The notes beneath the pieces are model-generated. The model was not told the origin of the DNA. It saw only the letters and a program-made list of their open reading frames with translations, and did no database searches. DNA of 64,000 bases from NCBI GenBank assembly GCA_018436595.1, contig JAHDLC010000012.1, positions 26,953 through 90,952 of the forward strand, in the 5' to 3' direction. The stretch comes from Synergistaceae bacterium (GTDB lineage: Bacteria; Synergistota; Synergistia; Synergistales; Aminobacteriaceae). A program made the position numbers and the translations under genes. Position 1 is the stretch's first letter, and each line of letters starts with the position of its first letter. Below are positions 17,630-56,693 of this stretch, in pieces.

Positions 17630-17633
17630 GCTC

Positions 17634-27550: not shown

Positions 27551-27565
27551 GGCTGACACCTCCCG

Positions 27566-29057: not shown

Positions 29058-29861
29058 TTATTCCTCTGCGAAAGCGACGATGCGGGAGATGCAGGATTCC
29101 CCGCCGACGAAGCGCCAGGGGAAGCAGCCGATGGTGACGCGCTTGCCGCTGACGAGGTCGATGTCTCCCGCCACGCACTCGGCGTGGATCAGGTTGCTCG
29201 GGAAGAGGGCAATGTGCATCACCTGGTAGTCCTCTTCAGGGAAGAAGTCGTCGAGGCCCTTGCCGTACTTCTTCTTCAGGTGGGCGTCGGCCTGCCTGGC
29301 CTGGACGGGCATCCACTCGCGGATCTTGGTGTTCATGGGGTGGTCAGCGGAGCCGCAGTCCACGCCGATCCACTTGAACTTTCTCTTGAGGGCCCACGTG
29401 GCGAACTCCCTGGTGGGTCCGGGGTGCTTCACCATGTACCGGACTTCGTCCGCCTCGGGCTCGTTCCAGCCATACCGGTGGTAGCCGGTGTTGATGATGA
29501 GGATGTCGCCGTCATGGATGTCCGCCCGGTCCTCGAGGTCCTTGGGGGTGTAGATGCCGTAGTCCTCGGCGATGTCCTTGATATCCACCACGACGCCGGG
29601 TCCCACGAGGAAATCCTTCAGGGGCAGGCTGGCGATGTCGCCGCCGTGGCCGCAGAAGTGGATGGGCCCGTCGAGGTGGGTCCCCACGTGGTTGGAGTGG
29701 GTGACAAGCTGCCCGTTGGCTCCGTTGGGGGCCAGGCGCTTGAAGTATTTCACCTGCAGGGGTTCATAGGTGGGCCAGGGCGGAGTCTGCACGCCGATGG
29801 GAATGGTGAGGTCATACACCTTGATGTTGCTCCAGTTCTTCAGTTCGAGACTATTGCTCAT
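29058..29861 (-). CDS. Cyclase-family metal-dependent amidohydrolase (kynurenine formamidase/isatin hydrolase-like)
   Basis: YDLT, HVGTHLDGPIH (HxGTHxDxPxH), GDILIINTG, GVD..SAD, HIALF. Confidence 0.88.
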   Translation of the reverse strand: MSNSLELKNWSNIKVYDLTIPIGVQTPPWPTYEPLQVKYFKRLAPNGANGQLVTHSNHVGTHLDGPIHFCGHGGDIASLPLKDFLVGPGVVVDIKDIAEDYGIYTPKDLEDRADIHDGDILIINTGYHRYGWNEPEADEVRYMVKHPGPTREFATWALKRKFKWIGVDCGSADHPMNTKIREWMPVQARQADAHLKKKYGKGLDDFFPEEDYQVMHIALFPSNLIHAECVAGDIDLVSGKRVTIGCFPWRFVGGESCISRIVAFAEE

Positions 29862-29906
29862 TCAAAAGCGCCTCCTTTGAGATTGAATCAATCCAGTCTT
29901 CCCGGG

Positions 29907-31166: not shown

Positions 31167-31168
31167 TG

Positions 31169-31351
31169 TCAGTTTCCTCCCTTCCTGAGCTTTTTCAGCC
31201 GGGCGAGGAGATCCCCGCCCGCAGCGGAGGGCTTCCAGTCCATGGAGACCGCCTCCGCCTTCTGGGTCTTCAGATCGGCGTAAAACTGTTCCACGCCGAT
31301 ATTCACAACCTTGGGTCCTTCCTTGAGCAGTTTCGTCACGGACATGGTCAT
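31169..31351 (-). CDS. Small FdrA/YahG-associated protein (60 aa)
   Basis: KVVNIGVEQFYADLKTQ..DWKP motif; overlaps the fdrA stop (ATGA); GGAGGG RBS. Confidence 0.7.
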   Translation of the reverse strand: MTMSVTKLLKEGPKVVNIGVEQFYADLKTQKAEAVSMDWKPSAAGGDLLARLKKLRKGGN

Positions 31352-32907
31352 CCCTCCAGGATCATGGCCGCCAGGCGGGCCGCCCGGGCGTTGCTTTCGC
31401 AGACATGCACGCCCAGCTCCTCGAGAATACGGCGCTGCTCCGACGCATTCTGGGGATCTGTATCCACGCCGCAGATGGACGCCACGAAGGCTATCCGATC
31501 GCCGGCGGCGGACCGGGCCTTGCGGATCCCTTCAGCGAGCCCCGCGGCGGGATCGTCGTTGCACCCGTAGCCGAGGACCACGTCGAAGAGGATCACTCCC
31601 ACTTCGGGGTCCTTTGCCTCCTCGTAGATCCGCTCCGCCCGCAGGGAGACGTCGATCATGGGATGGAGCCGCCCCTGGGTGAATTCGTCCTCGCCGTAAT
31701 CCACCATGGAATGCTGTTCGCTCCTCAGGCTGTCTTCGAGCTTCATCTCTTTTTCCAGTGGGGTGTTGCTCCGGATGGGACCAAGGATGTCCCGGGCGAT
31801 GAGCTGTCCCTCGTAGCACAGTGTCCCGCCGGAATAGAGCCCCCGGAGGAATCCCTTCCGCCTCCCGATGGTTTCGGCCCTCTGCCGGAGCGACTCATAG
31901 TCCCGAAAGAGGTTCTCCCTCGCGCGGGCCCCGTCCTCGCCTTTTGCAAGAGCGGCGGCCACGGCGGCGGTTTCCTCGAGCTCCCGGCAGATGAACACGC
32001 CGTCGGAATCACCCTTCGCCTCGCCTCCGATGAAGCCGAGAACGGCAGGCTTCTTCCCCGCCTTCACAGTCTGGAGGATCTTCTGCTCCACTTCCGGTGC
32101 GGGAGGCTTGCCGAGGACGGTAAGCACCTCCACCTCGTCGTCGGCGAGAAGGGCGTTCACCGCCTGGAGACACATGATGCCCCCCACCTCGCGGCGGACG
32201 TCCCTGCCTCCCGTCCCGATACCGTGGAGGACGCCCACTCCCCGCCTTGCGAGCTGGACGTGAACCTCCTGGAGCCCGGTTCCTGCAGCCGCGACGATGC
32301 TCACGGGTCCCGGAGGGCAGGCGTTCGCCATGCCCAGAGCCACGCCCCGGACGATGATGGTGCCGCAGTCGGGGCCCATGACGAGCAGCCCTTTTTCGGC
32401 GGCAGCCTTCTTTATCTCCACTTCCTTCTCCACCGGCACGTTGTCGGAGTAGAGCATGACGTTGAGTCCCTTCCCGATGCAATCCATGGCGACGTCGCCG
32501 GCGTATTTTCCCGCCACGGAGATCAGGGCGAGGTTCGCGTCGGGGAGGATCGAGAGCGCTCCGTCAAGGCTCTTGGGACGGTAGTCGCCCCCTGAATCCG
32601 CTTTTCTCCCGGGGGGATTGGCGAGGTATTCCTTCGCTTTTTCAAGGGCTCCTTCCAGGAGAGCCTCCCTTTCCCCTTCAGGGGCATCGGTCTTAACGGC
32701 AATGATGAGGTCGTTGGGGGTGGCGTCCACCCCGCCGAGGTCGAAACCTCCCGAGCCCATGATCTTGTAGTTCGCCTCGGTTCCCATGCTCAGCGAGGCC
32801 ACGGACACTCCTTCAGTCTTGAGAAGCTCCTTCGCCACAAGCATGAGGGTGACGCTGTCATAATAGGTCCTTCGGATAATTTGAATCCGCTGATTCGAAG
32901 AGGGCAC
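31348..32907 (-). CDS. fdrA: Acyl-CoA synthetase-like FdrA (YahF/AllF family)
   Basis: YYDSVTLM, GTEAN, ANLALISVAG, YSDNV, MGPDCGT, GTGGRD, GLYSGGTL, DEFTQGRLHPMID. Confidence 0.92.
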   Translation of the reverse strand: MPSSNQRIQIIRRTYYDSVTLMLVAKELLKTEGVSVASLSMGTEANYKIMGSGGFDLGGVDATPNDLIIAVKTDAPEGEREALLEGALEKAKEYLANPPGRKADSGGDYRPKSLDGALSILPDANLALISVAGKYAGDVAMDCIGKGLNVMLYSDNVPVEKEVEIKKAAAEKGLLVMGPDCGTIIVRGVALGMANACPPGPVSIVAAAGTGLQEVHVQLARRGVGVLHGIGTGGRDVRREVGGIMCLQAVNALLADDEVEVLTVLGKPPAPEVEQKILQTVKAGKKPAVLGFIGGEAKGDSDGVFICRELEETAAVAAALAKGEDGARARENLFRDYESLRQRAETIGRRKGFLRGLYSGGTLCYEGQLIARDILGPIRSNTPLEKEMKLEDSLRSEQHSMVDYGEDEFTQGRLHPMIDVSLRAERIYEEAKDPEVGVILFDVVLGYGCNDDPAAGLAEGIRKARSAAGDRIAFVASICGVDTDPQNASEQRRILEELGVHVCESNARAARLAAMILEG

Positions 32908-32927
32908 GGTTCCTCCTCCTTTCCCGC

Positions 32928-33620
32928 TTATCCGGTCCGCTCCCCGCAGAGGGCTTCCGAAAGCCCTGCAAGCCAGGCCCGGCCGGAGGTATGACCCCAG
33001 TCCGCAATACTCCCGGCACTTCCCGTTACTGCCACCGGATCCTCCGATGCAAGAGCGCCGAGAAGCCGCTTTGCCCGAAACCAGATTCCGCCTGCGAGGG
33101 TGTCCCGGAGCATTTCTTCAGAAAGCCAGGTCGTTTGGCCGGGAACAGGATGAAAAGGAACGGCTTTTCCCTGCCAGATCATCCCCGAGGCAAGGCCGGA
33201 GAGAAAGTCGTCCCCGGCGGGGGTGCTGCCCGGCCCGCGGCCGATGAGTTCATCCCAGGTCCGCCGGATGACCGGCTCCTGCAAATCCTCGAGCTCATCG
33301 GCAAGAAAATCCCGCCACTCGCCCACGAGCCCCCTCCAGCGCGGGTTCATCTTTCCCGCCGGAAGGGCGGGATCGTAGATCACCTGAACGCCCTCGGGAA
33401 CGACAATAACGTTTTCCCCTCCACGGAAATTGGGGAGCGTTTTCACGAGAAAGGTTCTCGGCCCCATGTCCTCTGCCGAGGTCACGAGGGACCATCGTCT
33501 CAGGCCTTCTTTTTCCTCGAGATTGACTGTTCTTCTATAAATTTCCCGGACGGAGAGAGAGACCGGTTCTTCGCCGGTATCGGCACTCCGTCCGGAGACG
33601 GGGATTGCAATTCCGATCAG
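32928..33620 (-). CDS. DUF2877 protein (YahE/YlbF-AllH-like); start uncertain
   Basis: IGRGPGSTPAGDDFLSG and GHTSG motifs; no canonical start codon upstream of the conserved-looking N-terminal segment. Confidence 0.75.
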   Translation of the reverse strand: MIGIAIPVSGRSADTGEEPVSLSVREIYRRTVNLEEKEGLRRWSLVTSAEDMGPRTFLVKTLPNFRGGENVIVVPEGVQVIYDPALPAGKMNPRWRGLVGEWRDFLADELEDLQEPVIRRTWDELIGRGPGSTPAGDDFLSGLASGMIWQGKAVPFHPVPGQTTWLSEEMLRDTLAGGIWFRAKRLLGALASEDPVAVTGSAGSIADWGHTSGRAWLAGLSEALCGERTG

Positions 33621-34801
33621 ACGACGCCGTCCTTCTTGAGGGCCTCGAATTCCTCGGCGCCGAGACCGAGGAAGGAGGTGAGCACCTCTTCGGTATGCTG
33701 GCCGAGAAGGGGGGCGGGTTCCTTTACCTCCGCCGGCGTGTCGGAAAACTTCACAGGAACGCCGGGAATCTTCATGGCTCCCGCCACGGGGTGAACCACG
33801 TCCACGATCATCTTTCGGGCGAGCACCTGGGGATCGTGCACCACGTGGGCCATGTCGTTGATGGGCCCGCTGGGGACATTCACCTTCTCGAACTCGCCAA
33901 GCCAGTGCTCCGAGGTATTCTTCATGGTCCTCTCTTCGAGGATTTCCTTCAGGGCGTGGAAATGCTCCACCCTGGCGGGGTTGTCGGCAAAGCGGGGATC
34001 GTTCACATATTCTTCCATGCCGAGCACGGCGCACATTCTCTTCCAGATTTCATCGTTCCCCACGGCGATGTTCATGGCACCGTCCGACGTCGCGAGGGTG
34101 GTGAAAGGGGAGATGGAGGGATGGCGGTTGCCGATGGGGTGGGGGATCTCTCCGCTGACCAGGTACCTGGAGACGGCGTTCTCGAGGACGGCCACCATGC
34201 AGTCGAGCATGGCTACATCCACGAGCTGGCCCCTGCCGGTACGGATCCTGGCGTTCACGGCGGATAGAACGCCGATGACGGTGAACAGTCCGGCGAAGAT
34301 ATCCGCCACGGAGCTTCCCACTTTCGTGGGGCTGTGCTCGTCCGGTCCGGTGACGCTCATCATGCCGCCCATGCCCTGGATGATGAGGTCATAGGCGGGG
34401 CGGGAACTGTAGGGTCCCGTCTGGCCGAAGCCCGAGCTTGCGGCGTAGATGAGCCGGGGATTGACCTTCCTGAGATCTTCGTATCCGACGCCGAGTTTGT
34501 CCATGGTTCCCGGCTTGAAGTTTTCTATGAGGATGTCGCTTTTTTTCGCAAGGTCCTTCAGGATCTCCTTGCCCCTGGGGTGTTTCAGGTTCAGCGTAAC
34601 GCTTCTCTTGCCCCGGTTGAGGCTCATGAAATAGGCGCTCTCGCCCTTCTGGAAGGGAGGATAGGCCCGGGTATCGTCCCCTCCGTCGGGACGTTCGATC
34701 TTGATCACTTCCGCCCCCAGGTCGGCGAACATCATGGCGGCAAAGGGGCCCGCAAGAACGCGGGTCATGTCCAGTACAACAAGTCCTTCCAACGGTTTCA
34801 T
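33617..34801 (-). CDS. Family III CoA-transferase (CaiB/BaiF/Frc-like)
   Basis: LAGP, DLGAEVIKIE..GDDTR, NRGKRS, ENFKPG, GFGQTGP, DVAMLD (catalytic Asp), APLLGQHT. Confidence 0.93.
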   Translation of the reverse strand: MKPLEGLVVLDMTRVLAGPFAAMMFADLGAEVIKIERPDGGDDTRAYPPFQKGESAYFMSLNRGKRSVTLNLKHPRGKEILKDLAKKSDILIENFKPGTMDKLGVGYEDLRKVNPRLIYAASSGFGQTGPYSSRPAYDLIIQGMGGMMSVTGPDEHSPTKVGSSVADIFAGLFTVIGVLSAVNARIRTGRGQLVDVAMLDCMVAVLENAVSRYLVSGEIPHPIGNRHPSISPFTTLATSDGAMNIAVGNDEIWKRMCAVLGMEEYVNDPRFADNPARVEHFHALKEILEERTMKNTSEHWLGEFEKVNVPSGPINDMAHVVHDPQVLARKMIVDVVHPVAGAMKIPGVPVKFSDTPAEVKEPAPLLGQHTEEVLTSFLGLGAEEFEALKKDGVV

Positions 34802-35146
34802 AGGGCAAACACCTCCAAAATTCTAGCTGCGGCGCACATGGTTCCAGCCCGCTCTCCTCACTGCTCCCCGGCCCCGTCAAATGTAAGTTTGTGACAAGAT
34901 GACGGGAACCGCACGCCTCTCTCGAAATGTCATCGCTATCCAGCTTCGGCGCGGACCGGGGTGGAATCCCCCGGGTGCCGGGAAAAACGCGAAATGGCAC
35001 AAATTCATGTTTTACATAGAGTTTATTTTATCATACACTATGTTTGGTCCCAAGGAATTACAATGTCAACACATAACATAAATGCTCTTCCATTCCCGCA
35101 CTCCGTGACACCTGCCGGGAGGAGGATGCACACAAAAAAAAGAGGT

Positions 35147-36712
35147 ATGTCCTGCATGATCGTCGCCGATCTTCTGAAAAAGAACCTTTTTCCGGACTTC
35201 CAGATTCTTGCCGGCAGCGGCGGCATGGGCCGCGAGATCAGCGCCGTCTCAGTCCTTGAGGCTCCCGATGCGGACCACTGGATGCGCGGCGGCGAGTTTC
35301 TCGTGGGAAGCGGTTTTGTTTTCAGGGACGACCCCGAGCAGCTCACTCCCCTCATCAGGAGAATGAACGGCAAGGGAATCGCGGCGGTGGGCTTCAAGCT
35401 CGACCGCTTCCACCACAAGCTGCCGGAAAGCATGACCGAGGAGGCGGACATCCTCCAGCTCCCCATCCTGGAGATACCTATGCACTACCGCTGGACGGAC
35501 ATCATCGACGTGATCCACACTCACCTGGTCCAGGAGCGGAACAGGGACCGTCCCGACGACCTGAGCGCCTTCTGGGAGGAAGGGCTCGACTTCCGGAAGC
35601 TCATGTCCGGCTTCGCCCAGAATCTCAGGAGAGACCTCCTGGTTCAGGCCCCCCAGCTTGATCTCAACAACCTTTTTCTCGCCGACGGTTCCATCCTCGG
35701 CGGAGAAGACGTGCAGAAATGCCTGGATCTTCCTGTGGTGCAGGAGACCGCCCTTCCCAAAAAAGGGCAGGTCCATTCCTGCGTGGAGGTCCGGAACAGC
35801 GGGCAGGTCCAGCGGTTCGCCGCCTACCGGCTGCGGCTCGACACCCCCATCTCCATCTTCGTGGTCCTCTCCCCGGGTGAACTCTCCCCGTCGGCCCGGC
35901 AGGAGCGCATGGTGCTGAGAGCCCTGACCATGCTCAGGGCGTCGGCCCTCGAGATCGCCATCGTGTCCAGCAAGAAAGTGATGAAGAAGGAGCGGTTCCT
36001 GGAGGGGCTGTGCTTCGGCCTCTACTGCGATCCCTCCATGATCCGGATCAATCTCAGGGAGCTGGGAATTCCCCTCTCCCTTCCGGCGTCAGTTCTCATC
36101 GCCTCCACCGCCGACAGACTTTCCACGCCCCGCTGGACATCACCGTCAGGACTGAGCTACAGGCTCGGCAACACATGGGTCACCCTTATCCCCTCTTCCA
36201 CCATCGAGGACCTGAAGAACGCCCTCCAAAAGGAAGGGCATGCCCTGGGGTTTCATTTTTCTTTCGGCTCTCCCGCCGCGGACCTCATGGAAATTTCCCG
36301 GTCTTACCAGGAGGCCCGGAGAACCTTTTCCCTGCTTCGGGATTTCTCCCTTCCCCCCGGGGTCTACTTTTACGAGGAACTCTCCCTGTACGGCCTCCTG
36401 CAGAGCATGTCGAAGCTGCCCGAGGCACGGGATGTCTGGGAGAGATTCTGGGAACCCCTGGAAAAAGACTCAAACCAGGCCCGGCGGAGCCTGCCCCTGA
36501 AGGAGCTTGCTTCCATGCTCGTGGCCAGGGATTTCAACGCCAAGTCATGCGCCGACGGGCTCCACCTCCATTACAACACCGTGAGGAACTACCTCAGGGA
36601 GATCGAGACGGTGCTGAAAGTGGACCTCAGCAATCCCCACCATCGTCTCGGCATCACCCTGGGCTGCCACATCAACGGAAGCATCGCCGGGCAACGCTCC
36701 TCCCTGGGGTAA
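35147..36712 (+). CDS. PucR family transcriptional regulator
   Basis: N-terminal PucR ligand domain (LAG..G..REI..VSVLEAPD..WMRGGE) and C-terminal HTH (LHLHYNTVRNYL); divergent from the heterocycle operon. Confidence 0.9.
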   Translation: MSCMIVADLLKKNLFPDFQILAGSGGMGREISAVSVLEAPDADHWMRGGEFLVGSGFVFRDDPEQLTPLIRRMNGKGIAAVGFKLDRFHHKLPESMTEEADILQLPILEIPMHYRWTDIIDVIHTHLVQERNRDRPDDLSAFWEEGLDFRKLMSGFAQNLRRDLLVQAPQLDLNNLFLADGSILGGEDVQKCLDLPVVQETALPKKGQVHSCVEVRNSGQVQRFAAYRLRLDTPISIFVVLSPGELSPSARQERMVLRALTMLRASALEIAIVSSKKVMKKERFLEGLCFGLYCDPSMIRINLRELGIPLSLPASVLIASTADRLSTPRWTSPSGLSYRLGNTWVTLIPSSTIEDLKNALQKEGHALGFHFSFGSPAADLMEISRSYQEARRTFSLLRDFSLPPGVYFYEELSLYGLLQSMSKLPEARDVWERFWEPLEKDSNQARRSLPLKELASMLVARDFNAKSCADGLHLHYNTVRNYLREIETVLKVDLSNPHHRLGITLGCHINGSIAGQRSSLG

Positions 36713-42213: not shown

Positions 42214-42315
42214 TATACATCAAAATGATCCACATGATTGTTATTTTTTCCTTCTTCGCTTTGTATGCTTTTACGTTGTGATTTTTTTTTCGGACAGACG
42301 AGAGGGGGATTCAAG

Positions 42316-43281
42316 ATGCTTCCAAAAAAAATGTTCCGATGCCTGCTGCTGGTTCTTCTGTTGGCCCTTCCCTCATGGGGGGAGGAACTGGTTCTTCCTC
42401 CGATTGAGGAACTGCCGGCGGGAGAAACTCCCCCCGCCGCCCCGGTCATTCCCTCCCTTCCTGCTGTTCCTGCCGTTGACGCGGTCCCGGCTTTCGAGAC
42501 AAGCGGTTCTACAGGGCAGCCTCCTGCTCCTCCGGCAGGGGGAGACGTGCTGGATGAAACGGAGTTCGCAAAGATCAACTGGACAGGGGACTACGTGGAG
42601 GCAACCGGTCAGGCTGTGCCTCCCCCGGGAATGGAAAATTCTCCCCAGGGCAAGCTTCTTGCCCGTCGGGGCGCCGTGGTGGATCTCCAGCGGAACCTTC
42701 TCGAGGCCGTCCAGGGAGTGAAGGTCGACTCGAAAACCATCATGACCGATTTTATGGCCTCCGACCTTGTCAGGACCGAGGTGCAGGGCCTGATCAAAGG
42801 CGTGGAGGTCCAGGAAGGCTCATGGGACGGAGCCGTCTATACCGTCAAGGGGAGGGTGAAGCTTGAGAAGGTCCGGGCCGCCGTGCTGCCGGCCCTGCCG
42901 AAGCAGCCCGGAAAAAAGGCCGTTCCCTCGCTCCAGCCGAAAACAGGCGGAGCGTCGGGGCTCCTTGTGGATGCCCGCCATCTTCCTCTGATCCCCGCCC
43001 TGATCTTTCGTATAGTGGACGGAAACGGAAAGGAAGTGTACGGGCTCGACTTCGTCGACCAGGAACGTTTTCTCGCTTCAGGCCTCTGCGACTACCATAC
43101 GAATATCGACTACGCGCGGGGGGCTCCCCGCATCGCGTCGTCCCCCCTGGTGATCAAGGCAGTCAAAACGGTGTCCCCCGGAAATGCGGATCTGGTGATT
43201 TCGAACGCCGATGCGGCAAAAATACGGGGAAACGCCTTCGACTTCCGGATTCCCTGCAGGGTAACCGTGGTGAAGCGGTGA
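42316..43281 (+). CDS. Exported protein with LPP20-like domain
   Basis: Signal peptide, Pro-rich linker, INWT..VEATG..LARRGAVVDLQRNLLE..GV.VDS.T; GAGGGGG RBS. Confidence 0.7.
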   Translation: MLPKKMFRCLLLVLLLALPSWGEELVLPPIEELPAGETPPAAPVIPSLPAVPAVDAVPAFETSGSTGQPPAPPAGGDVLDETEFAKINWTGDYVEATGQAVPPPGMENSPQGKLLARRGAVVDLQRNLLEAVQGVKVDSKTIMTDFMASDLVRTEVQGLIKGVEVQEGSWDGAVYTVKGRVKLEKVRAAVLPALPKQPGKKAVPSLQPKTGGASGLLVDARHLPLIPALIFRIVDGNGKEVYGLDFVDQERFLASGLCDYHTNIDYARGAPRIASSPLVIKAVKTVSPGNADLVISNADAAKIRGNAFDFRIPCRVTVVKR

Positions 43282-43285
43282 GATC

Positions 43286-44419
43286 ATGAGAAGATCTTTT
43301 GCCGCCCTTTGCATTCTGCTGTCGGTTCTGATTCCCCGGCCCGCTGCATGGAGCGCCGACCCTGTTGCCGTACAGGCCGAAGGAATGGCTGCCGTTATTG
43401 AAGGAAACACCGCCCGTGCCCGTGAGGAAGCCACCCGCCATCTGTACAGGGACGCCGTCGAGAAGGCCCTGGGCGCCTACGTCCAGGGGATCACCGAGAT
43501 GAAGGATTTCGCCGTCGTCAGGGACAGGGTTTTTTCCCAGTCCCAGGGAATAGTGACTTCAACGAAAAACCTGGCGGAGACCCTCGGACAGGACGGCATT
43601 CTTCGCCTCACGGCGGACTGCACTGTTTCCACGACCGTTCTCGACGGGGTTCTCGGTCCCGCCGTCATCGACATGCTCGGCAACCCGAGGGTCATGGTGC
43701 TGGTGGACGAAGTGGTGGAAGGAGAGCGGCAGTTCCTCTCCACTGCTGAAGGAGAGGTGCTGCGGGTTTTTCAGAAGGCGGGCTACCTGATCGTGGACCC
43801 GGCGCAGGCGGGAGTCATCAGGGAAGGAGAACTCGAGGCCGCCAGGCTCTCGGGCGACCCGGCGAAACTCCGGGAAGTGGCAAAATCCTTCCGCTCCGAT
43901 GTGCTGATCCACGGCAAGGCCCAGGGAAATTCCTTCGCCAGGCAGAAGATTGAAGGCGTTACCCTGTTCGGTGTGCGGTCCCAGCTCCAGCTCAAGGCCG
44001 TCATCACCCAGAACGCCGTCGTTCTGGGAACGGAGATCGCCGAAGCGAAGACCAAAGGGACATCCCCCGGGGACGGAGCGGTGAAGGGTTTCACCACCCT
44101 CGCTCCCAGATCGGCGGCGGAACTCGTCCACAAGGTGGCCTATGCCCTCGTGAGCGGGTCTTCCGGCGGCATTCCTGGGAGGACGTACCGGGTCTCCGTA
44201 TCCGGCGTTTCGTTCAGCGAAGCCAGAAACCTCCGGGAAGGCCTGGCGGGAAAGAAGGGTATAACGGGGGTTTACCAGAGAAGCTTTGCCGACAGGACTC
44301 TCGAGATGGACGTGACGGCGGAGCTCACATCTGAAGAGGTGGCCCTTGCCCTGGAAGCCCTCGGCGTTGAGGTAACCGGCCTGACCGGGGGGACCGTTGA
44401 AGGGAGAAAGCATCCATGA
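43286..44419 (+). CDS. Exported protein with FlgT_N-like N-domain and CsgG-like middle domain
   Basis: Signal peptide; V.AEG.A....ARAREEA...AVEKA.G pattern; GY.IVD middle domain. Confidence 0.65.
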   Translation: MRRSFAALCILLSVLIPRPAAWSADPVAVQAEGMAAVIEGNTARAREEATRHLYRDAVEKALGAYVQGITEMKDFAVVRDRVFSQSQGIVTSTKNLAETLGQDGILRLTADCTVSTTVLDGVLGPAVIDMLGNPRVMVLVDEVVEGERQFLSTAEGEVLRVFQKAGYLIVDPAQAGVIREGELEAARLSGDPAKLREVAKSFRSDVLIHGKAQGNSFARQKIEGVTLFGVRSQLQLKAVITQNAVVLGTEIAEAKTKGTSPGDGAVKGFTTLAPRSAAELVHKVAYALVSGSSGGIPGRTYRVSVSGVSFSEARNLREGLAGKKGITGVYQRSFADRTLEMDVTAELTSEEVALALEALGVEVTGLTGGTVEGRKHP

Positions 44420-44865
44420 AAGGGATCCTGCCGCTGTTCCTGCTCCTCTTTCTTCTCGCGGCCGCCCGGGGATGTGCCTCCCTGTCCCTGGAACAGATCG
44501 ATCAGATACGGCGGAACAACGGCGGAGCGGAGGGAATACAGGTGTTCCGGTACGGTGTCGTGGACTGGAGCGGGGGATCCGTCACCGCCGAAGGCAGAGG
44601 CCCCCTTCTCTCCGGTTCACCCCATGACAGGCTTCTGGCCAAAAGGGGAGCCGTTTCCGATGCCCGCCGGAATCTTCTCTGCCTTCTGTACGAAATGAAG
44701 TTCGGCCTTCCGGAAAAGCTGGAGTCCATCGAGGTATCGGGAGAAGTCGTCGAGGGGAACATTGACTTCCAGGGAGTCAGGAACGGCATGTACATCGTCG
44801 AAGTGACCGTTTCGCTGGACAGGTTTCTCTCGGAGAGCCTGATTTTCAGCAGCACGGTGAGGTGA
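44416..44865 (+). CDS. Small exported/possible lipoprotein, LPP20-like paralog of 42316 N-domain
   Basis: VDWSGGSVTAEG..LLAKRGAVSDARRNLL aligns with 42316; signal ends AARGC. Confidence 0.65.
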   Translation: MKGILPLFLLLFLLAAARGCASLSLEQIDQIRRNNGGAEGIQVFRYGVVDWSGGSVTAEGRGPLLSGSPHDRLLAKRGAVSDARRNLLCLLYEMKFGLPEKLESIEVSGEVVEGNIDFQGVRNGMYIVEVTVSLDRFLSESLIFSSTVR

Positions 44866-44870
44866 TTTTC

Positions 44871-45668
44871 ATGAAATGGCGTCCATGGATACTCCTGGTA
44901 TTGCTTGTCATCTCCTGCCTCCTCCTTCCGGATGCCGAAGCCCTGGGAGCCGCCCTTCCTCAAGGAAAGACCATCGCCGTTCTCGTCAGGGGGACACCCT
45001 CTCATGCGGCTGCGACCCGTTCTCTCCTGGTCCGGGCCCTTCTCGACGGGGGCTATCGGGCAGTGGACGAGCAGCAGCTCGAAAAAATCAGGCGCAGCAA
45101 GGCCGCAGCCCTGGCTCTTGAAGGGAATGTGGATGCCATTCTTCAGCTCGGCCGAAGTTTCGGGTTTTCCGTGCTTCTCTCAGGCGCGGTCACCGTTCCG
45201 AAACCGGTGCGAAATGAATTCGGACTTTTTACAGCCACGGCCTCCGTTTCGGTCACGGCCTGCCATGCAGCCAACGGCAGGCAGATTCTGGCCCTGACGG
45301 AATCGGCGAAAGAGATCGGCTACACTCCGGAAGAGGCGGCGCAAAAAGCGGCGGAAAAGGCCGCCTCGTCCGCAGGAGATGTCATCCTGGGAAAAAGAGC
45401 CGCCGGAAAGCCGGAGAACCCGGCGTCAAAATACACAGTCATCGTTTCGCCGGTGAGATCCTTCGCGGAAGCCCACGGCATAGTGGAAAGCTGCAGGGAT
45501 GCCGGAGCCCTCTCCGCTTCCCTTCTGCGGTTCGCCGCCGGAAAGGCCGAGGTGGAGGCGGAGTTCGGAGGAACGGCGGCGCAGCTTGTTGCCGCCCTTC
45601 TTCGGGTTCGCAAGGAGTTCTTCGAAGAGTCCGCGGAGGGGAACGTCATCAGGCTGGGGAAGCAGTGA
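44871..45668 (+). CDS. Exported protein, paralog of the middle and C-terminal domains of 43286
   Basis: Signal peptide; GYRAVDE; YTVIVS.V.SFAEA aligns with YRVSVSGVSFSEA of 43286. Confidence 0.7.
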   Translation: MKWRPWILLVLLVISCLLLPDAEALGAALPQGKTIAVLVRGTPSHAAATRSLLVRALLDGGYRAVDEQQLEKIRRSKAAALALEGNVDAILQLGRSFGFSVLLSGAVTVPKPVRNEFGLFTATASVSVTACHAANGRQILALTESAKEIGYTPEEAAQKAAEKAASSAGDVILGKRAAGKPENPASKYTVIVSPVRSFAEAHGIVESCRDAGALSASLLRFAAGKAEVEAEFGGTAAQLVAALLRVRKEFFEESAEGNVIRLGKQ

Positions 45669-45693
45669 AACGGCCTTTTCATGAAAGGAAGGG

Positions 45694-46413
45694 ATGATGA
45701 TGATCCACGGGAAAAGAATCGCGCTCCTGATGCTCGCAGGGATCCAGTTTTTCCTCGTTCTCTCCGGCACGACGGCTGCACGGGCCGAGGTCAGTCTGTT
45801 CATCGATGCCCATACCGTCCGGGTCCATGATCCCTCTCTCGGGCGCCAGTCAGTTCTCAACGACTTCCGGACAAAAGGTCACCGGACCCACAACTACCTT
45901 GCCCTTGTATGGAGCGAAGATACTGCATGGGTATACGACACCAGGACCCATCAGTGGCTCACCCAGGGAGATTTCCGGACCCTGCTCGGTTCCCTCTCCG
46001 ACGAATTCGCCCTCGTCTGGAACGACAGCGAGGCGGCAGTTTTCGACGCGAAGAAGCAGGAATGGATACGGAGCGAAACCATGCCCTGGACCGTCAGCGG
46101 CGCCCATCTCTCCCGGGGAATGGCCGCTCTCTCCGGAGACGACGGCTTCGTGGTCTACGATCCCGTACTGAAGCAGTGGCAGTACGCCAACGATTTTCCG
46201 GTACTGAAGGCCCAGGTGGGAGATGTGCTTGCGGCGGCATGGGATGCGGACAACCTCGTCCTTTATGATCTGACGGTGCACCAGTGGGTTCTCCGGGAAG
46301 GAATCAGGGCTCAGGCATGTATCATCAACGGACACAAGGCCATTATCTACACCGCGGACAAAATCCTTGAATACGACGCCATGACCCACCGCTGGACCGA
46401 GAAAAACCGGTAG
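45694..46413 (+). CDS. Exported repeat protein (probable beta-propeller)
   Basis: Signal peptide then about six 36-38-aa repeats with [YF]D....W. Confidence 0.75.
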   Translation: MMMIHGKRIALLMLAGIQFFLVLSGTTAARAEVSLFIDAHTVRVHDPSLGRQSVLNDFRTKGHRTHNYLALVWSEDTAWVYDTRTHQWLTQGDFRTLLGSLSDEFALVWNDSEAAVFDAKKQEWIRSETMPWTVSGAHLSRGMAALSGDDGFVVYDPVLKQWQYANDFPVLKAQVGDVLAAAWDADNLVLYDLTVHQWVLREGIRAQACIINGHKAIIYTADKILEYDAMTHRWTEKNR

Positions 46414-46439
46414 GGAAGCCCACGAAAGGAGAATCGGGC

Positions 46440-47597
46440 ATGAAAGAGGCACTCCGCAGAATATCCATTCTTTCCGCAGTTCTTTTCCTGTTCCTTCTCC
46501 CGGGAGCGGAGGGAGCCTCCCTTTCCGTGGCCGTCCAGCCCTTCCTTTCCCAGGGAACGGAATTCCACCTCGGGCCGGCCGTCTCGGACATCGTCTCCAC
46601 CAGCCTGGCCGGGGCCAGGGACATCACGGTGGTCGAACGGATGCGCCTCGCGGAGGTCGCCAGACAGCACCGCCTTTCCATGTCCGGAGTGGTGGATACG
46701 GCAACCGCTGCCACAGCGGGAAAACTCTCCGGGGCCAGGTATTTCATTCTCGGCGCGGTCAGCCGTTTCGGCGCCCTTCTCGTGGTCACCGCACGGCTGG
46801 TGGACGTGGAGTCCGGCAGGGTTCTCGGGAGCTTCGAACAGACTTCACGGCAGGGAGAGGATGAGATCGTCCTTGTCTCGAGAAACCTCTCGGCGGAGCT
46901 TCTGGCCTTTTTCAGCGGAGATGCCCCTGCGCCGGGCGATCCTCTGAAGGACTACAGGTACTATCTCTACGAAGCCCTGGGCTACTACAACCTGGGTGAG
47001 TACAGAAAATCCCTTCCCTTCTGGGAGAAGATGACCCAGCTCAGTCCCCGCAACGGACTCCTCCGGTTCATCGCCGCGGGGATCTACTTCCAGGCGGGGA
47101 GGCACTCCGACGCCCTTATCGCCGCCCAGCAGGCGGTCACATGGGATCCCTCCTTCGCCGAAGCCCATCTTCTCGTCGGGAAAGCCTATTTCCTCCTCGG
47201 GGACAACCATAAGGCCACACCGCCCCTTGACAGGGCCCTGGAGCTGAATCCCAGGCTGACGGAAGCCCTTTTTCTCAAGGGATCGGCCTTCAAAAACAGG
47301 AAGCGGACCGAAGAGGCGGCCGATTTCTTCGTGGAGGCTATCCAGACCGATGAAACCTATGTTCCCGCGTATCTCGCCCTCGGTCAGCTGCTCCTGGAGA
47401 ACGGGGCGGCAGAGGAAGCCGCAGGCGTTCTTCTTTCGGGAATGAAGCACCAGCCGGGCAACGGCAATCTCCGGTTTCTTCTCGGCACGGCCCATCTGAT
47501 GCGGGGCAATCTCCAGGGAGCGAAGGAACAGGCCGCAGCCCTGAAATCCATAGATACTGCGCTGGCAAAAAAACTGGAACAGCTCTGCAGCCAGTGA
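46440..47597 (+). CDS. CsgG/HfaB/FlgO-like domain plus TPR repeats
   Basis: Signal peptide; VVERMRL, AGKLSGARYFILGAV, ARLVDVESG; several TPR-like helix pairs. Confidence 0.8.
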   Translation: MKEALRRISILSAVLFLFLLPGAEGASLSVAVQPFLSQGTEFHLGPAVSDIVSTSLAGARDITVVERMRLAEVARQHRLSMSGVVDTATAATAGKLSGARYFILGAVSRFGALLVVTARLVDVESGRVLGSFEQTSRQGEDEIVLVSRNLSAELLAFFSGDAPAPGDPLKDYRYYLYEALGYYNLGEYRKSLPFWEKMTQLSPRNGLLRFIAAGIYFQAGRHSDALIAAQQAVTWDPSFAEAHLLVGKAYFLLGDNHKATPPLDRALELNPRLTEALFLKGSAFKNRKRTEEAADFFVEAIQTDETYVPAYLALGQLLLENGAAEEAAGVLLSGMKHQPGNGNLRFLLGTAHLMRGNLQGAKEQAAALKSIDTALAKKLEQLCSQ

Positions 47598-47631
47598 GAG
47601 CTGCAATCTGCAGAAAGGGAGTGACGCGATC

Positions 47632-48366
47632 ATGAAGTTGAAAGCCCATGTATCGGCAGGAATCCTGATTCTCGGCTTCGCTCTCCTCCTCTCCCCAGTC
47701 CGGGGATTCGGATGAGGCGGAGGAAGCGACGGGGGCGGCGGGGCGTCGTCCACAGCAGAGGAGAAGGCCATCGAGAGAATAGTGAGCGTGTTTACCTCGA
47801 AGGGAATGCTTGAGGGCAGGGATCTCGACGAGGCGGTCAAGCTGGCGGGGTCCGTCACGAAGGAAGGGGAATGCAAGGCGGCATACCTGGCCGGCGCCAG
47901 CCTGCTGCGAAAGGGAGAGTATGACAGGGGCAGGGAGTTCATGCTGAAGGCCCTTGACGGATGCTACGATCTGTCCGTGAATTTCTGGGGCGACATGGAA
48001 CGGCTCCGGACCATCGCGGCCGGAGAACTCGCCCTCCACGCGGGCACCAGGGGAGATTACCGGACCATCATCGCCGTTGAGGAGAAAGTGGCAAAGGACA
48101 TTGCCACGGACAGGCTTCTGGTGAGAGACGCGAAATGCATTCTCCAGGGAAGGACCAAGCTCGGTGATATACTGAAATTCCACAAGGCTCGGGCGTACCA
48201 TGCTTCGAAGATGACCGCCGATGCAAAGAACACCCTGAACGAACTCCAGTTCGCTTCGGGGAAAGTGTTCGTTGACGGCGAAGTGGTCGGTTTGAAGGAC
48301 GCTATTTCGAAACTGCAGCTTCAGGTGGACGGAGCGGCCTTTCTGCCTTTCCTGAAGGCTGTTTGA
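47632..48366 (+). CDS. Exported TPR-like protein interrupted by in-frame TGA at codon 28 (recoded or pseudogene)
   Basis: GAAAGGGAG RBS, ATG 47632, signal peptide, TGA 47713-47715, then the same frame stays open to 48366. Confidence 0.65.
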
Positions 48367-48388
48367 CGTGTTTCGGGAGGAATGAGTG

Positions 48389-48880
48389 ATGGGCAGAGTG
48401 CCGGCGGCTGTTCTGCTGCTTCCTGTTTTTCTGGGGATCCTTTTGTTCCCCTGCCCTTCAGCGGGAGAAATGGTTCTTGCCGTACCTGATTTCCAGGCCG
48501 TGGGCTGCATGCCCTACCTTGGCTCCGGAGTGGCTGAACAGGTAAGGGCGAAACTGACGGGCCGGGGCCCGTGGACACTTCTTGAATCCTCCCAGATGGC
48601 GAAGATCGCCTCGGAACATCGTCTCTCCATGTCCGGGCTGATGGATGAAAAGAAAGCGATATCTGTCGGAAAGGTTCTCGGGGCCCAATATCTTATTGTC
48701 GGTTCCGTCAGCCTGACGGGATCCGTATTCACTCTGACTGCCCGTCTGGTGGACGTCAGTACCGGGGTGGTTCATGCCGGTTTTCAGACCGTCACCCATG
48801 AGGGAGAGGAAGGCCTGCCGGCTGCCGCAGGGTTCCTGGCGGAGGACATCGCCGCGGAGCTGGGCGGACCTGATGCCTGA
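48389..48880 (+). CDS. CsgG/HfaB/FlgO-like exported protein
   Basis: Signal peptide; LAVPDF, EHRLSMSGL, VGKVLGAQYLIVGSV, ARLVDVSTG; paralog of 46440 N-domain. Confidence 0.8.
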   Translation: MGRVPAAVLLLPVFLGILLFPCPSAGEMVLAVPDFQAVGCMPYLGSGVAEQVRAKLTGRGPWTLLESSQMAKIASEHRLSMSGLMDEKKAISVGKVLGAQYLIVGSVSLTGSVFTLTARLVDVSTGVVHAGFQTVTHEGEEGLPAAAGFLAEDIAAELGGPDA

Positions 48881-53319: not shown

Positions 53320-53868
53320 CTACATATCCCGAACAGTCAGAACCAATACAGCCTGCCCCGCCCCGGGCGCAAGGCTGTTGTTGCCCGTCATTTTCACCGT
53401 CCCCCTGCCGCCGGCGCAGAAAATCCCCCGAACCCCCGTAAGGAGGTCGACCTCTCCGGTTCCGAGAGCCTGGGGTCCGGTGGACCGCCCTTCCCTTGGT
53501 GAAGTTATCTCCACCGTCAGCGACAGCCCTGCCGGCAGAGGCGACACAAGACGGCCCGTCAGCTTTCTCGGCGCATCCCCGGTGGAGGAAAGGAGAAAGA
53601 AAAAGGCGCTCTCGCCCGGTTTTCCGCCGATCATGGCGGCCATTGAGACGGAAGTGTTCGTGAGATGGACCCCGCGGAATTCCGGAATGGTCACTTCCAG
53701 GGAAAGCGCGGCCGATTCCGCCGCCTCCGAGGGGAAATCCATGGCCCCCAGCAGCAGCGCTCCCGCGGCGCACGCGAGAAGAATCGAAAGAATCGAAAGA
53801 ATCGGAAGCGATCCGGAACCGGACCGAGAAATCATCATTGTGCCCTTCCCCTTTCCCCGAGGGTTCAT
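53320..53868 (-). CDS. Exported pilin-like subunit (terminal gene), paralog of 58160
   Basis: Signal peptide; K..G..LP.G.S..TGPQ.LGT..VDL shared with 58160; start 53868 (ATGA overlap) or 53838. Confidence 0.65.
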   Translation of the reverse strand: MNPRGKGKGTMMISRSGSGSLPILSILSILLACAAGALLLGAMDFPSEAAESAALSLEVTIPEFRGVHLTNTSVSMAAMIGGKPGESAFFFLLSSTGDAPRKLTGRLVSPLPAGLSLTVEITSPREGRSTGPQALGTGEVDLLTGVRGIFCAGGRGTVKMTGNNSLAPGAGQAVLVLTVRDM

Positions 53869-56693
53869 TTCTTTTTTCCGGAAGAGGACGTCGTCGTAAC
53901 GGTGCCGCTGTCGATAAACTGTATGGTCCGTTTCTTCCGGAAAATGTGATTCACCATCTCCATCACGTCCCCAGGCGCCAGATCAATGGTTTTCGACTCG
54001 GTCTCGAACTGGTAGCCGGCGGGGATGCCCGCTTCGTAAAATGTCAGCTGCCAGTTCCCGGGGCGGATGTTGTCGAACACGAACTCCCCGTTCATGTCGG
54101 TGGAACGTCTGACTGTCTGGTCATCCCTTGTCAGCTCCACCAGTATGTGGGCCAGGCTGACAGGCTTGGCGCCGGATTCCGTCGCCGGCGGTCCCCCGGC
54201 ACCTTCCTTTCCGCCATCTCCCGTTCCTCCCTCCCTGAGAGCGAGCCTTCCCCTGAAAATCGCCCCTTTGGTTATGCCGATATCCATGGAGACAGGTTTG
54301 GGCCCTCCCGCGATCTCGAGGGAGATGGGGTACTTCTGCACCGTGGTGAAACCGTAGCCGATGGACTTGGGGTCGATCATGACGCGGTAAAAACCGGGCT
54401 CCAGGGCGGGGAAGAGGAAAAGACCGTCCTTGTCGGTCACCACGGCTTCAGTCCCTACCCTGACAACAATGTCAGGAAGCCCCGGCTTTTCCGGATTCAT
54501 GGAGTCGAATACCTTGCCCCTGAGAATCCCCACGTTCGTCTTCTTCACCGTCTTGATGCCCACCGGAATCTGGTAGGAAAGGCGGTATTCCGTTTCATAA
54601 TCGTCCCTGGTGACTTCCAGGGTAAGAAGCCGTTCTTCCGTCATCTCGTAGGTTGCGATAAGGTCGAACTGGTTTGACAGCATCTCGGCGTTGTCCCCGA
54701 TGCCGGATCTCGTATAGGCCAGGGAAAGGGTGAGCCGGGGAGAGGCCCTCCAGAAGACAGCCCCTCCGAAACTGCTCGACCCCCTGAGAAGGTAGCTCTC
54801 GCTCAGGACATCGTTGTCGCCGAGGTTCCAGAAAAAGCTCAGGGTGAGGTTGGGCGACGGGAAATAACTCACGAGGAAATTCACGTTCCAGGCCGATTCC
54901 GACACCCCGGTGAGATGATTGTGCTGGTCGCTGAACCGGGGCTCCACGGACCAGTTGATCTGGCCGAAATTCCGGCCGAACCGGATCCAGTACGATGTCT
55001 CCGAATAATCGAAGTTTGCGGGAGCAAGCCGATCGACCCGCCCGAAATCATCAAAGCCGACCATGAGGAACCAGCCGTTCTGCAGAGAGAAATCGAGGGT
55101 CGCCTGCACCAGGTTCTCGGATACGGCCGTATCCGACTCTCCCGGCCTGCGGTCGAGATTGTTCTCGTAGGAGGACGCTCCTATCCCCAGCCGCATTTTT
55201 GGACCTACCGGCAGGCTGACGGAAGCGTTTTCGTAATCGTAGCTGTGGAAATAGCCCCAGTAGTCGGCCCCGGCATGGGTCTTGCCAAGGGAGTAGGACA
55301 TCTTTCCCGCCGTCATCCCCCGCCACAAAAAGCGGTAGGCATCGTCGTCGTTTTTCGCTCCGGGCCGGTCAGTGCTGCTGCGCCCGTACTCAACTTCAAG
55401 CGTGCTGTTCTTTCCCGTCCTGAAGCGCCCTTCCAGGCTCCAGAGCTTGTCCTCCACCTCCGGTTCGCTGCTCGTGGCTTTTGTCTCGGACTGGGCCACG
55501 TTCAGGCGGAGAAAGGAATCATCCCCGAGGGAACGCTGCAGGTAAAATCCCCTGTCGATCCAGTCCTCTTCCCCGGCCCGGTCCCTCACGTAGAACAGGC
55601 CTGCGGACATGTTCCCTCCGGCCATGGACTTGAAATCCACCCCAAACCCCCTTCCGTAGGAGGAATAAACGGTCAGGGGGGAGACGCCGTAGGGCTGGTC
55701 CCCCATCAGGATCCCGAGGGAGCGGCTCGAGTAATTCATCCAGTATTCGTCGGTCCTGCTGAAGAAGGAGGAATCGTCCACATCGGGCCCCCGGAAGGAA
55801 AAGGAAAATTGCTGTTCTCCCTCTTCGTCGAGGGTACCCGCCCCTTTCCATTCGAAGGACGGCTTTGTGTCTCCTCCAGCGGTTCTCGCAGCCGATACGG
55901 CGAACGTGGAAGGGAGGATATGGTAGGGTTCCGGTTTTTTAAAGAGGGCGGGTACGACCTCCAGGAGGACAGCAGTGGAGACGGCCTCCTCTTTTTTTCC
56001 GTCCTTCTCGATTTCCGCCGTTAACTGGATGACGGTGACAGTTCCCCGGAATCCGGGGTCGATCTTTCCCGAGACGGAAATGGCCGCCCCTTCCCCGGGC
56101 TTGAGTGAAACTTCCGATGGAGCCGCCAGAGCTGGTGAGTTCGGATCCGTGTTCTTCGCCCGTATCAGGAAGGTACGGGGGATATTGCCCGAATTGACCA
56201 GCCGGGCGGAAAACTCGTATTCTTCCCCCGCCATGAGCGATGCCGGAGGGTTCTCCACCATCAGGTCAGTCTTCGCCACCGCGAGAACGACCACCTCATA
56301 TTCCATCGAGCCCCGTATGGACGGATCCCGGTCAGACTGCACCGAATATTGGATTTTCGCCCGTCCCTCTGCGGCATTGATGGGTATCTGGAACGACAGG
56401 AGGCGGGCCGTCGAGGCCTGGGGAGGCAGCACGAAGGACGTCATGGGGATCACCATTGACCAGCCTTTCGGCAGGATGACGTCTTCCCGGAACCGTTCCT
56501 GCCTGTTCGTCCGGTTGGTAACCTCGATACTGATGGTGTGCATGCGGCTCGGCTCGGACACGATCTGGACCGGTGAAACAACCCGGACCTCCGCTCCCCT
56601 GCCGTGAAACTGGGCACAGGAAGGCCCTCCTCCCAACAGAAGGAGAAAGACAAGCCCCGCCGACAATCCCCTGCCGACCCGCATGGCGTCCAT
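53865..56693 (-). CDS. Usher-like outer-membrane protein (Ig-like domains, beta-barrel, carboxypeptidase-regulatory-like domains)
   Basis: Signal peptide; two Ig-like N-domains; long run of amphipathic aromatic beta-strands; G.LRGKVFD..TDKDG.F.F..L.PG.Y domain occurring twice. Confidence 0.65.
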   Translation of the reverse strand: MDAMRVGRGLSAGLVFLLLLGGGPSCAQFHGRGAEVRVVSPVQIVSEPSRMHTISIEVTNRTNRQERFREDVILPKGWSMVIPMTSFVLPPQASTARLLSFQIPINAAEGRAKIQYSVQSDRDPSIRGSMEYEVVVLAVAKTDLMVENPPASLMAGEEYEFSARLVNSGNIPRTFLIRAKNTDPNSPALAAPSEVSLKPGEGAAISVSGKIDPGFRGTVTVIQLTAEIEKDGKKEEAVSTAVLLEVVPALFKKPEPYHILPSTFAVSAARTAGGDTKPSFEWKGAGTLDEEGEQQFSFSFRGPDVDDSSFFSRTDEYWMNYSSRSLGILMGDQPYGVSPLTVYSSYGRGFGVDFKSMAGGNMSAGLFYVRDRAGEEDWIDRGFYLQRSLGDDSFLRLNVAQSETKATSSEPEVEDKLWSLEGRFRTGKNSTLEVEYGRSSTDRPGAKNDDDAYRFLWRGMTAGKMSYSLGKTHAGADYWGYFHSYDYENASVSLPVGPKMRLGIGASSYENNLDRRPGESDTAVSENLVQATLDFSLQNGWFLMVGFDDFGRVDRLAPANFDYSETSYWIRFGRNFGQINWSVEPRFSDQHNHLTGVSESAWNVNFLVSYFPSPNLTLSFFWNLGDNDVLSESYLLRGSSSFGGAVFWRASPRLTLSLAYTRSGIGDNAEMLSNQFDLIATYEMTEERLLTLEVTRDDYETEYRLSYQIPVGIKTVKKTNVGILRGKVFDSMNPEKPGLPDIVVRVGTEAVVTDKDGLFLFPALEPGFYRVMIDPKSIGYGFTTVQKYPISLEIAGGPKPVSMDIGITKGAIFRGRLALREGGTGDGGKEGAGGPPATESGAKPVSLAHILVELTRDDQTVRRSTDMNGEFVFDNIRPGNWQLTFYEAGIPAGYQFETESKTIDLAPGDVMEMVNHIFRKKRTIQFIDSGTVTTTSSSGKKK

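Follow-up and report, generated by a model that had tools for sequence, protein, structure and literature searches.

In E. coli fdhF-type selenoprotein genes, an in-frame UGA is followed at 20–40 nt by a small stem-loop with an apical G (often GGU or GGUC), which is the intragenic selenocysteine insertion sequence (SECIS; Zhang & Gladyshev consensus). The same arrangement, with a TGA kept among orthologues and one orthologue bearing Cys, was found for a gene at positions 47632–48366 of a 64,000-nt stretch of contig JAHDLC010000012.1 (positions 26,953 to 90,952; assembly GCA_018436595.1, Synergistaceae bacterium). This whole stretch is called the window here, and all coordinates refer to it and, unless marked (-), to its plus strand. 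The in-frame TGA of the gene is very probably decoded as selenocysteine (Sec) in an exported protein, as judged from sequence comparison and RNA folding, and the gene most likely encodes a periplasmic selenoprotein of a previously unannotated family that is apparently restricted to Synergistota. The mechanism is ordinary bacterial UGA/SECIS recoding, but the setting differs from the fdhF type: the proposed Sec, encoded by codon 28 right behind a signal peptide, belongs to a disordered tether and not to a folded active site, there is no Pfam or NCBIfam model and no thioredoxin-like or enzyme fold, and the residue is replaced mostly by Ser or Thr (plus His).

Exported selenoproteins have been described before, as SaoB, SaoC and SaoX carry signal peptides (Haft & Gwadz, bioRxiv 10.1101/2022.07.06.499078 / J Bacteriol 2023). 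A preliminary description of this locus, made from the sequence, had stated that no exported or lipid-anchored selenoprotein family was known; this was too broad, but it appears to hold for the family described here. The SAO proteins and HgcA, with its N-terminal CU (Cys-Sec), are the closest described cases, without any sequence or fold relation to the present gene. The discovery logic is the same, the database entries are likewise cut at the UGA, Sec has been proposed as a metal or organometal ligand, and a CU dipeptide also occurs in two of our homologues (L016 and L039). On the other hand, Sec is embedded in the substrate-binding-protein fold of SaoB and SaoX (positions 72 and ~192) and is the C-terminal residue of SaoC, whereas the mature chain is predicted to begin with it here, and the SAO operon context also differs from the one here.

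The gene has a Shine-Dalgarno-like AAGGGAG at 47615–47621, 10 nt upstream of the start codon as read from the sequence, and ATG 47632 opens the frame. The N-terminal part encoded is MKLKAHVSAGILILGFALLLSPVRGFG, whose 27 codons (47632–47712) form a Sec-type signal peptide with an MKLK n-region, a hydrophobic core, a Pro and the c-region VRGFG. The proposed Sec codon, TGA at 47713–47715, follows directly (residue 28 of the precursor), and the same frame continues past it as GGGSDGGGGASSTAEEK... up to the true stop codon at 48364–48366, which is also TGA, as in most orthologues, giving 244 codons in total. This layout had been given in the preliminary description, and the sequence bears it out, as the program-made list of open reading frames (ORFs) does for the remark that automatic calling misses the gene by restarting it at GTG 47782. 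Two antisense ORFs, one of 390 aa at 47338–48510 (-) and one of 365 aa at 46845–47942 (-), run across the gene and the neighbour upstream of it. Spurious ORFs of this sort are typical of G+C-rich DNA, and since the TGA splits the real gene, a gene caller that prefers the longest ORF would choose them instead.

To see whether the TGA is genuine, contigs from independent sequencing runs from wastewater, sludge and anaerobic digesters were compared, as the preliminary description had proposed doing with raw reads. Positions 47713–47715 were unchanged in contigs of four independent DNA (metagenome) runs and four metatranscriptome runs, all with TGA and none with a sense codon, and the sole nearby variant was 47697 A>T, a synonymous change in a Pro codon. 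The RNA contigs bridge the gene and its neighbours (X30 covers 45600–48254 and X32 covers 46122–48793), which shows transcription of the gene, probably within an operon, and no editing of the codon, with the caveat that DNA carry-over is possible in metatranscriptome contigs. A sequencing or assembly error, or a nonsense mutation of one strain, had been left as an option in the preliminary description; with the same TGA in all eight runs and in 26 diverged homologues from independent assemblies, its probability is practically negligible.

Searching 5.8 billion proteins returned 25 relatives, all from Synergistales and all unnamed or “hypothetical,” and an exhaustive hidden Markov model search of 1.84 billion representatives confined the family to 22 clusters, which is tiny. 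Most of the 25 relatives are annotated at 194–198 aa, with a start just downstream of the expected TGA position, and four are 244–249 aa long with a signal peptide. We therefore looked at the DNA of the “short” relatives, of species-representative genomes and of metagenome contigs. In each of these, the frame extends upstream across a TGA at the same codon to a signal peptide ending ...[F/W]-[G/C]. In total, TGA occupied this codon in 26 distinct homologues, and TAA or TAG in none. The carriers come from Aminobacteriaceae, Synergistaceae, Thermovirgaceae, Aminivibrio metagenome-assembled genomes (MAGs) and unbinned metagenome contigs. Remote members keep the codon as well, with ...AAFG-TGA-SGGGGSGGG in L046 (profile E 3e-46), ...IAFG-TGA-GCEGGAGG in L049 (3e-14; here the residues would read U-G-C) and ...PGWG-TGA-QDDNDSSGGG in L050 (6e-13). 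Such constancy of TGA, in 26 homologues and always at the codon next to the signal peptide, argues that it is read as Sec.

In one orthologue cluster, P0026 (L047/L048), the site is Cys (TGT), and the context is the same gene order of Kelch-like, CsgG-TPR, the family member and LpoB-like; TGA in 26 sequences and Cys in an orthologue is the alternation that the preliminary description had named as support for Sec. Other sense-codon homologues have Ser or Thr at the site, namely L024 (TCA), L023 (TCG), L025 (AGC), L018 (ACT), P0027 and P0029. In a neighbour-joining tree, the TGA form occurs in all major clades and the sense-codon forms are nested within them, which means at least three independent losses. 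The length of the homologues read through the TGA is mostly 243–250 aa, against 241–254 aa for those with a sense codon. Published criteria for recognising a new family of selenoproteins are 10 or more examples, 100% TGA, similarity through U and equal lengths (Haft & Gwadz, bioRxiv 10.1101/2022.07.06.499078), and the family here shows all of these.

A few sequences of the family deserve separate mention. In L044 (WOYI011018276.1), nt 62–73 at the end of the signal peptide read TCA TGG GGC ACA (S-W-G-T), so the former Sec codon may now be TGG (Trp) or ACA (Thr), and there was neither a His near the site nor a hairpin. The cluster P0034 (WP_026368561.1, from the cultured Aminiphilus circumscriptus) has a predicted mature N-terminus D-C-N-C-E-G-S... 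and no Sec. L016 (LVBB01000095.1) is labelled “Phycisphaerales bacterium Planc_01,” and over the mature domain it shares 95% identity with L023, which is nested among Synergistaceae MAG orthologues in the tree; judging from these sequences, the L016 contig is probably a mis-binned Synergistaceae contig. L011 (NZ_JBMNMY010000011.1, an Aminivibrio sp. MAG) has the TGA and a frameshift ~50 codons downstream, which is probably an indel error of long-read assembly rather than the sign of a pseudogene.

The strength of selection on both sides of the TGA was then estimated from the ratio of nonsynonymous to synonymous changes (pN/pS) in 9 independent pairs. The ratio was 0.42 for the signal peptide, 0.31 for the stretch from the TGA to the annotated start and 0.22 for the remainder; such low values on both flanks mean that both sides are translated in this frame. 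This bears on the idea that the TGA is a true stop, with a 27-codon leader or mini-ORF followed by a separate gene from an internal GTG or ATG (47782), or with a pseudogene. Gene callers and GenBank do annotate products of 194–198 aa, as this idea would have it. However, the annotated starts vary among orthologues, the L019/L043 clade has no such start there, and the stretch between the TGA and the start is not only under purifying selection but can also be aligned with the sense-codon homologues, which are uninterrupted ORFs beginning with the same signal peptide. A product without signal peptide would be cytoplasmic although every operon partner is secreted, and neither a pseudogene nor an ordinary stop would require that the codon always be TGA in 26 sequences. 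We regard a true stop as very unlikely.

The genetic code itself was also considered, because UGA could have been reassigned to Gly or Trp as in Gracilibacteria/SR1 or Mollicutes, and a Gly here would blend into the Gly-rich stretch that follows. Against this, TGA is the commonest ordinary stop of the window (24 of 53 greedy ORFs, Pfam-verified genes included) and terminates this gene and most of its orthologues, so that the code must be the standard one, without reassignment. As part of the ALTERNATIVES and code check, a coding-potential scan of all in-frame TGAs in the window ranked 47713 second, and the only one with a higher score, 27568 (-), merely divides two abutting genes. The chance of a reassigned code is thus close to nil. 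The same scan could have shown Sec use by the same organism through another case, but no second gene with an in-frame TGA and a convincing coding signal on both sides was found in the 64-kb window.

Downstream of the TGA, the favoured SECIS-like hairpin is GGGCGGCG-GGG-CGTCGTCC at 47733–47751. It has 8 bp including two G.U pairs and a triloop of G only, its 5' arm GGGCGGCG occupies 47733–47740, and the loop begins 28 nt after the U of the UGA. The hairpin has an energy of -12.1 kcal/mol and an ensemble pair probability of 0.5–0.6. The preliminary description had pointed to another hairpin, GCGACG (47726–47731) with CGTCGT (47744–47749), which has a 12-nt G-rich loop and uses the same 3' arm. 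This complementarity exists, but the gap from the TGA to the stem is 10 nt and not 16, and the structure is a minor conformer (-7.6 kcal/mol, or -8.9 with the GG/CC extension; pair probability 0.01). Its arms match the short-loop hairpins of L001 (GACGACG-GTC-CGTCGTC) and L004 (GGTGACG-GTC-CGTCGCC).

Hairpins were then compared across clades by a specific statistic, the energy of the best bulge-free hairpin with a G in the first two loop positions and a loop start 16–37 nt from the U. Summed over 11 clade representatives, this energy was -93.0 kcal/mol against -43.0 ± 11.7 for synonymous shuffles (z -4.3, Fisher p 8.5e-5), where the statistic had been adopted after the whole-region energy proved non-significant and an earlier version of the test had covered 8 clades. 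The hairpin had -6.8 to -12.1 kcal/mol in 9 of the 11 representatives. The stems of the clades, such as CTCCGGA-GGT-TCCGGAG, GACGACG-GTC-CGTCGTC, CGGAGCC-GGC-GGCTCCG, CTCCTC-GGTC-GAGGAG and TTCCTC-TGGAG-GAGGAA, are unlike in sequence and alike in their geometry and G-rich triloop or tetraloop; a G-rich apical loop with common geometry is the shared feature cited for bacterial SECIS. Two compensatory double changes were seen in unambiguous codon alignments (L007 to L017, U-A to A-U; L001 to L004, A-U to G-C). Where the TGA is replaced by TCG, in L023, the 5' arm is destroyed, and in the four Ser/Thr-codon homologues (L018, L023, L024 and L025) and L044 no hairpin was better than the null. A hairpin after the TGA is thus present with statistical support across clades. 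The preliminary description had worried that the hairpin could be a by-product of Gly codons, which is justified for the energy of the whole region, while the specific hairpin statistic does discriminate.

Several points weigh against Sec decoding. The minimum free energy of the 48 nt downstream of the TGA was no better than that of synonymous-codon shuffles, Gly (GGN) and Ser (TCN) codons readily form hairpins, and two TGA clades (L021/L045 and L046) have a weak one. The Cys-codon orthologue retains a good hairpin (-9.5), which may be the relic of a SECIS or may reflect composition, and a scan of the window at Rfam gathering thresholds matched no family and no SECIS model. Most of the sense-codon homologues have Ser or Thr and not Cys, which is atypical for selenoproteins. 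No selA, selB, selD or known selenoprotein gene was found among ~50 ORFs of the 64-kb window surveyed with Pfam, and ARAGORN found no tRNA, hence no selC, in it. The main weak link is the Sec competence of the host, for which the support is literature at the phylum and family levels only. In a 2016 survey, Sec was used by 13 of 14 Synergistetes genomes and the phylum was rich in selenoproteins (PMC5029168), and 13 known selenoprotein genes have been counted in Aminobacterium sp. and 18 in Cloacibacillus (PMC12013277).

Some of these points would suit leaky termination without selenium, in which a near-cognate tRNA (Trp, Cys or Arg) reads the UGA at low level or the stop is regulatory, so that a 27-residue peptide would be made together with some Sec-less full-length protein. 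UGA is the leakiest stop codon, the folding energy of the whole region is unexceptional, no sel gene was found in the window, and the possible TGG (Trp) in L044 would also agree with it. Leakiness does not account for a G-loop hairpin that lies at SECIS distance, is stronger than in synonymous shuffles and disappears where homologues have a Ser or Thr codon, nor for the Cys orthologue and the CU, UGC and CNC motifs, which are a classical Sec signature, and the phylum is rich in Sec. To our knowledge, there is no conserved bacterial read-through context of such conservation depth. Leaky termination is quite unlikely, and the Sec-containing exported protein that had first been proposed for this locus gains from the 26 TGA homologues, the Cys orthologue, the SECIS-like hairpin and the unchanged contigs.

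Under Sec decoding, translation would begin at ATG 47632, and the UGA at codon 28 would be read by the standard bacterial route, with Sec-tRNA(Sec) brought by SelB and SelB held by the small G-loop hairpin 20–38 nt downstream of the UGA, after which the frame would run on to the real stop at 48364–48366. The signal peptide has the same architecture in all homologues, with G, A or C at -1, G, S, A, V, I or C at -3, mostly F or W at -2, and a Pro ~6 residues upstream of its end. From the -3/-1 rule, we infer that signal peptidase I would cleave after G27, just ahead of the residue that the TGA encodes (...G-F-G|U), after export by the Sec pathway. It is thus fairly probable, as far as this rule predicts, that Sec is residue 1 of the mature chain.

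Another fate of this residue had been suggested, a lipid anchor. In such a Sec lipoprotein, Sec at +1 (Cys in P0026) would be diacylglycerol-modified by Lgt, signal peptidase II would cut, and a selenoether-linked lipid would anchor the protein in the membrane. Mature lipoproteins often begin with C-G-G-S and a Gly/Ser linker, many of the orthologues (...A-G-F-G-U, ...S-A-F-A-C) would fit the permissive PROSITE-type lipobox if U is taken as C, and some operon neighbours have lipobox-like ends (LVISC, AARGC). The strict lipobox [LVI][ASTVI][GAS]C, however, is absent, since the window gene has V-R-G-F-G-U and the family has G, S, A or V at -3 and F or W at -2. Close relatives and the window gene itself carry R or K at -4 (VRGFG, VKGFG), where lipoboxes do not allow such residues, and Cys at +1 is not invariant, with Ser or Thr at the site in L018, L023, L024, L025, P0027 and P0029, so lipidation is not conserved. 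The R at -4 and these replacements together make a lipid anchor unlikely. Alkylation of the selenol would moreover abolish the chemistry that could justify a costly Sec in ~26 lineages. We consider the lipid-anchored form quite improbable, and prefer a periplasmic selenoprotein.

After cleavage, the mature protein would have Sec first, then a disordered Gly-rich tether of ~13 residues, and then a helical scaffold like that of tetratricopeptide repeats (TPR). The Gly-rich flexible tether GGGSDGGGGASST is encoded at 47716–47754, and the RNA of the same stretch also holds the SECIS-like hairpin. The folded domain (47755–48363) is a TPR-like helical repeat with two beta-hairpins, and a search of Pfam and NCBIfam (release 20), in which C stood for U, assigned it to no family. 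AlphaFold2 modelled the part after the TGA with a predicted local distance difference test score (pLDDT) of 89.6 and a predicted template modelling score (pTM) of 0.85, showing the helical repeat and the two beta-hairpins, while residues 1–9 had pLDDT <50 and no secondary structure was seen before residue 14. A Foldseek search against the PDB placed the TPR scaffolds YfgM, MamA, BamD and the BepA TPR on top, weakly (template modelling score, TM, 0.4–0.5; E ≥ 5e-3), and these generic TPR-like matches gave no functional lead. Such periplasmic scaffolds are the best structural neighbours of the family and share with it the periplasmic setting and CsgG_N/LpoB-like and TPR partners, but the TM is only 0.4–0.5 with E of at least 5e-3, there is no Pfam TPR match, and the model adds two beta-hairpins.

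The residues that follow the predicted cleavage site across the family are U, CU (with the C at -1), UGC, C, DCNC, TH, SPH, SQH, SPGGH and TQGGH, and a Gly-rich disordered stretch always comes after them. A His within 5 residues of the site was found in 5 of 7 forms that lack both Sec and Cys, the Sec forms given above having none, and it arose in separate clades. Sec, Cys and His are a set of soft ligands, which makes an N-terminal hook for metal binding or capture the most economical reading. As a tentative proposal from these sequence patterns, the likeliest function would be a soft-ligand hook for a metal or for the capture of a partner, and the hook would act within an envelope complex encoded by the same operon. 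The pattern suggests that a hook residue may have been exchanged repeatedly in evolution for Ser/Thr-x-His, Cys or C-x-C. A Sec relay with C81 and C111, which are invariant in close orthologues, was also considered and is disfavoured; both are missing in the Sec-bearing L046 and in the Cys orthologue P0026, which makes a conserved intramolecular redox relay less likely.

Metal hooks at N-termini freed by removal of a signal peptide or propeptide are known from other proteins: the Ni-hook of nickel superoxide dismutase (NiSOD), the amino-terminal Cu(II)- and Ni(II)-binding motif (ATCUN, NH2-X-X-His) and the histidine brace of CopC and of lytic polysaccharide monooxygenases (LPMO). As in the present family, their ligands stand at the mature N-terminus, where the free alpha-amine is a possible co-ligand, and S-Q-H here has an ATCUN-like His3. 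None of them is known to use Sec, and the likeness to the family here is one of resemblance only. ATCUN does not tolerate Pro at position 2, which weakens an ATCUN reading of S-P-H. A further parallel is mammalian thioredoxin reductase, a cytosolic flavoenzyme with a C-terminal GCUG arm and a eukaryotic SECIS. There too, Sec is carried outside the folded core, by a flexible terminal arm in which Gly and in some cases Cys adjoins it, but that arm is at the C-terminus and not at the N-terminus.

The gene lies in a same-strand cluster at 42238–48880 that encodes eight proteins with signal peptides, according to Pfam and NCBIfam results and to their N-termini. The members are an unassigned 347-aa ORF, a weakly LipL46-like protein, proteins of 149 aa and 268 aa, a His-rich Kelch-like protein of 239 aa, a CsgG_N+TPR protein, the product of this gene and a CsgG/LpoB-like protein. 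The order from the ~268-aa protein through the Kelch-like protein, the CsgG_N+TPR protein and this gene to the CsgG/LpoB-like one recurs around homologues. The cluster is probably one operon, and it looks like an uncharacterised envelope complex.

The Pfam survey described other content of the window, with TRAP and ABC transporters, Ldh_2, LarA, FtsH, AOR, a Mo enzyme of xanthine-dehydrogenase type, AllG/AllH, PucR and others. The region 7607–20031 has two Ldh_2 genes (malate/L-lactate dehydrogenase family), a LarA-like lactate racemase homologue and a DctPQM TRAP transporter, with FtsH between them. The region 20113–36709 is a purine or xanthine catabolism neighbourhood, with two xanthine/uracil permeases, AllG/AllH/CoA-ligase-like oxamate carbamoyltransferase genes and a PucR regulator, and within it, at 25136–29178 (-), lies a three-subunit Mo hydroxylase of xanthine-dehydrogenase type. 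In some anaerobes, Mo hydroxylases of this type depend on a labile selenium cofactor. At 53868–56693 (-), a 942-aa protein has a C-terminal CarboxypepD_reg/SpaA-like domain as its sole domain, and it is followed by three small ORFs without family match.

Taken as a family, these proteins probably form a new selenoprotein family with an unusual position of Sec. The selenoprotein families tabulated in a 2026 review carry Pfam or NCBIfam ids (PMC13188914), and none of them was matched here with Pfam and NCBIfam release 20; the papers listed by a literature search for a natural “N-terminal selenocysteine” did not contain the phrase. It is possible, although we would put it forward with some doubt, that this is the first natural family with Sec as the N-terminal residue of a mature exported chain, where a free 1,2-aminoselenol on a poly-Gly tether would serve as a selenium-based hook for an envelope complex. 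A lipoprotein lipidated through a selenoether would be a still bolder variant of this idea, and a quite improbable one. Standard selenoprotein discovery requires Cys/Sec pairs (PMC12013277, PMC13188914). With almost no Cys homologues, the family is missed by such screens by design, and its one Cys cluster among otherwise Ser/Thr forms may explain the lack of annotation.

If confirmed, the family would mark a blind spot of discovery by Cys/Sec pairs, as the usual replacement here is Ser/Thr plus His. It would also mean that proteins now annotated as truncated ~195-aa “hypothetical protein” without a signal peptide are in fact longer and exported; by dropping the signal peptide, the annotation would mislocalise the protein. 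Attention is thereby drawn to a conserved operon of secreted proteins whose hosts occur in abundance, and are transcriptionally active, in anaerobic digesters. To have Sec first in a secreted chain, on a disordered tether and with no redox fold, would be, if true, an unusual use of selenium, and the family would offer a tractable model of Sec as a metal ligand in the bacterial envelope.

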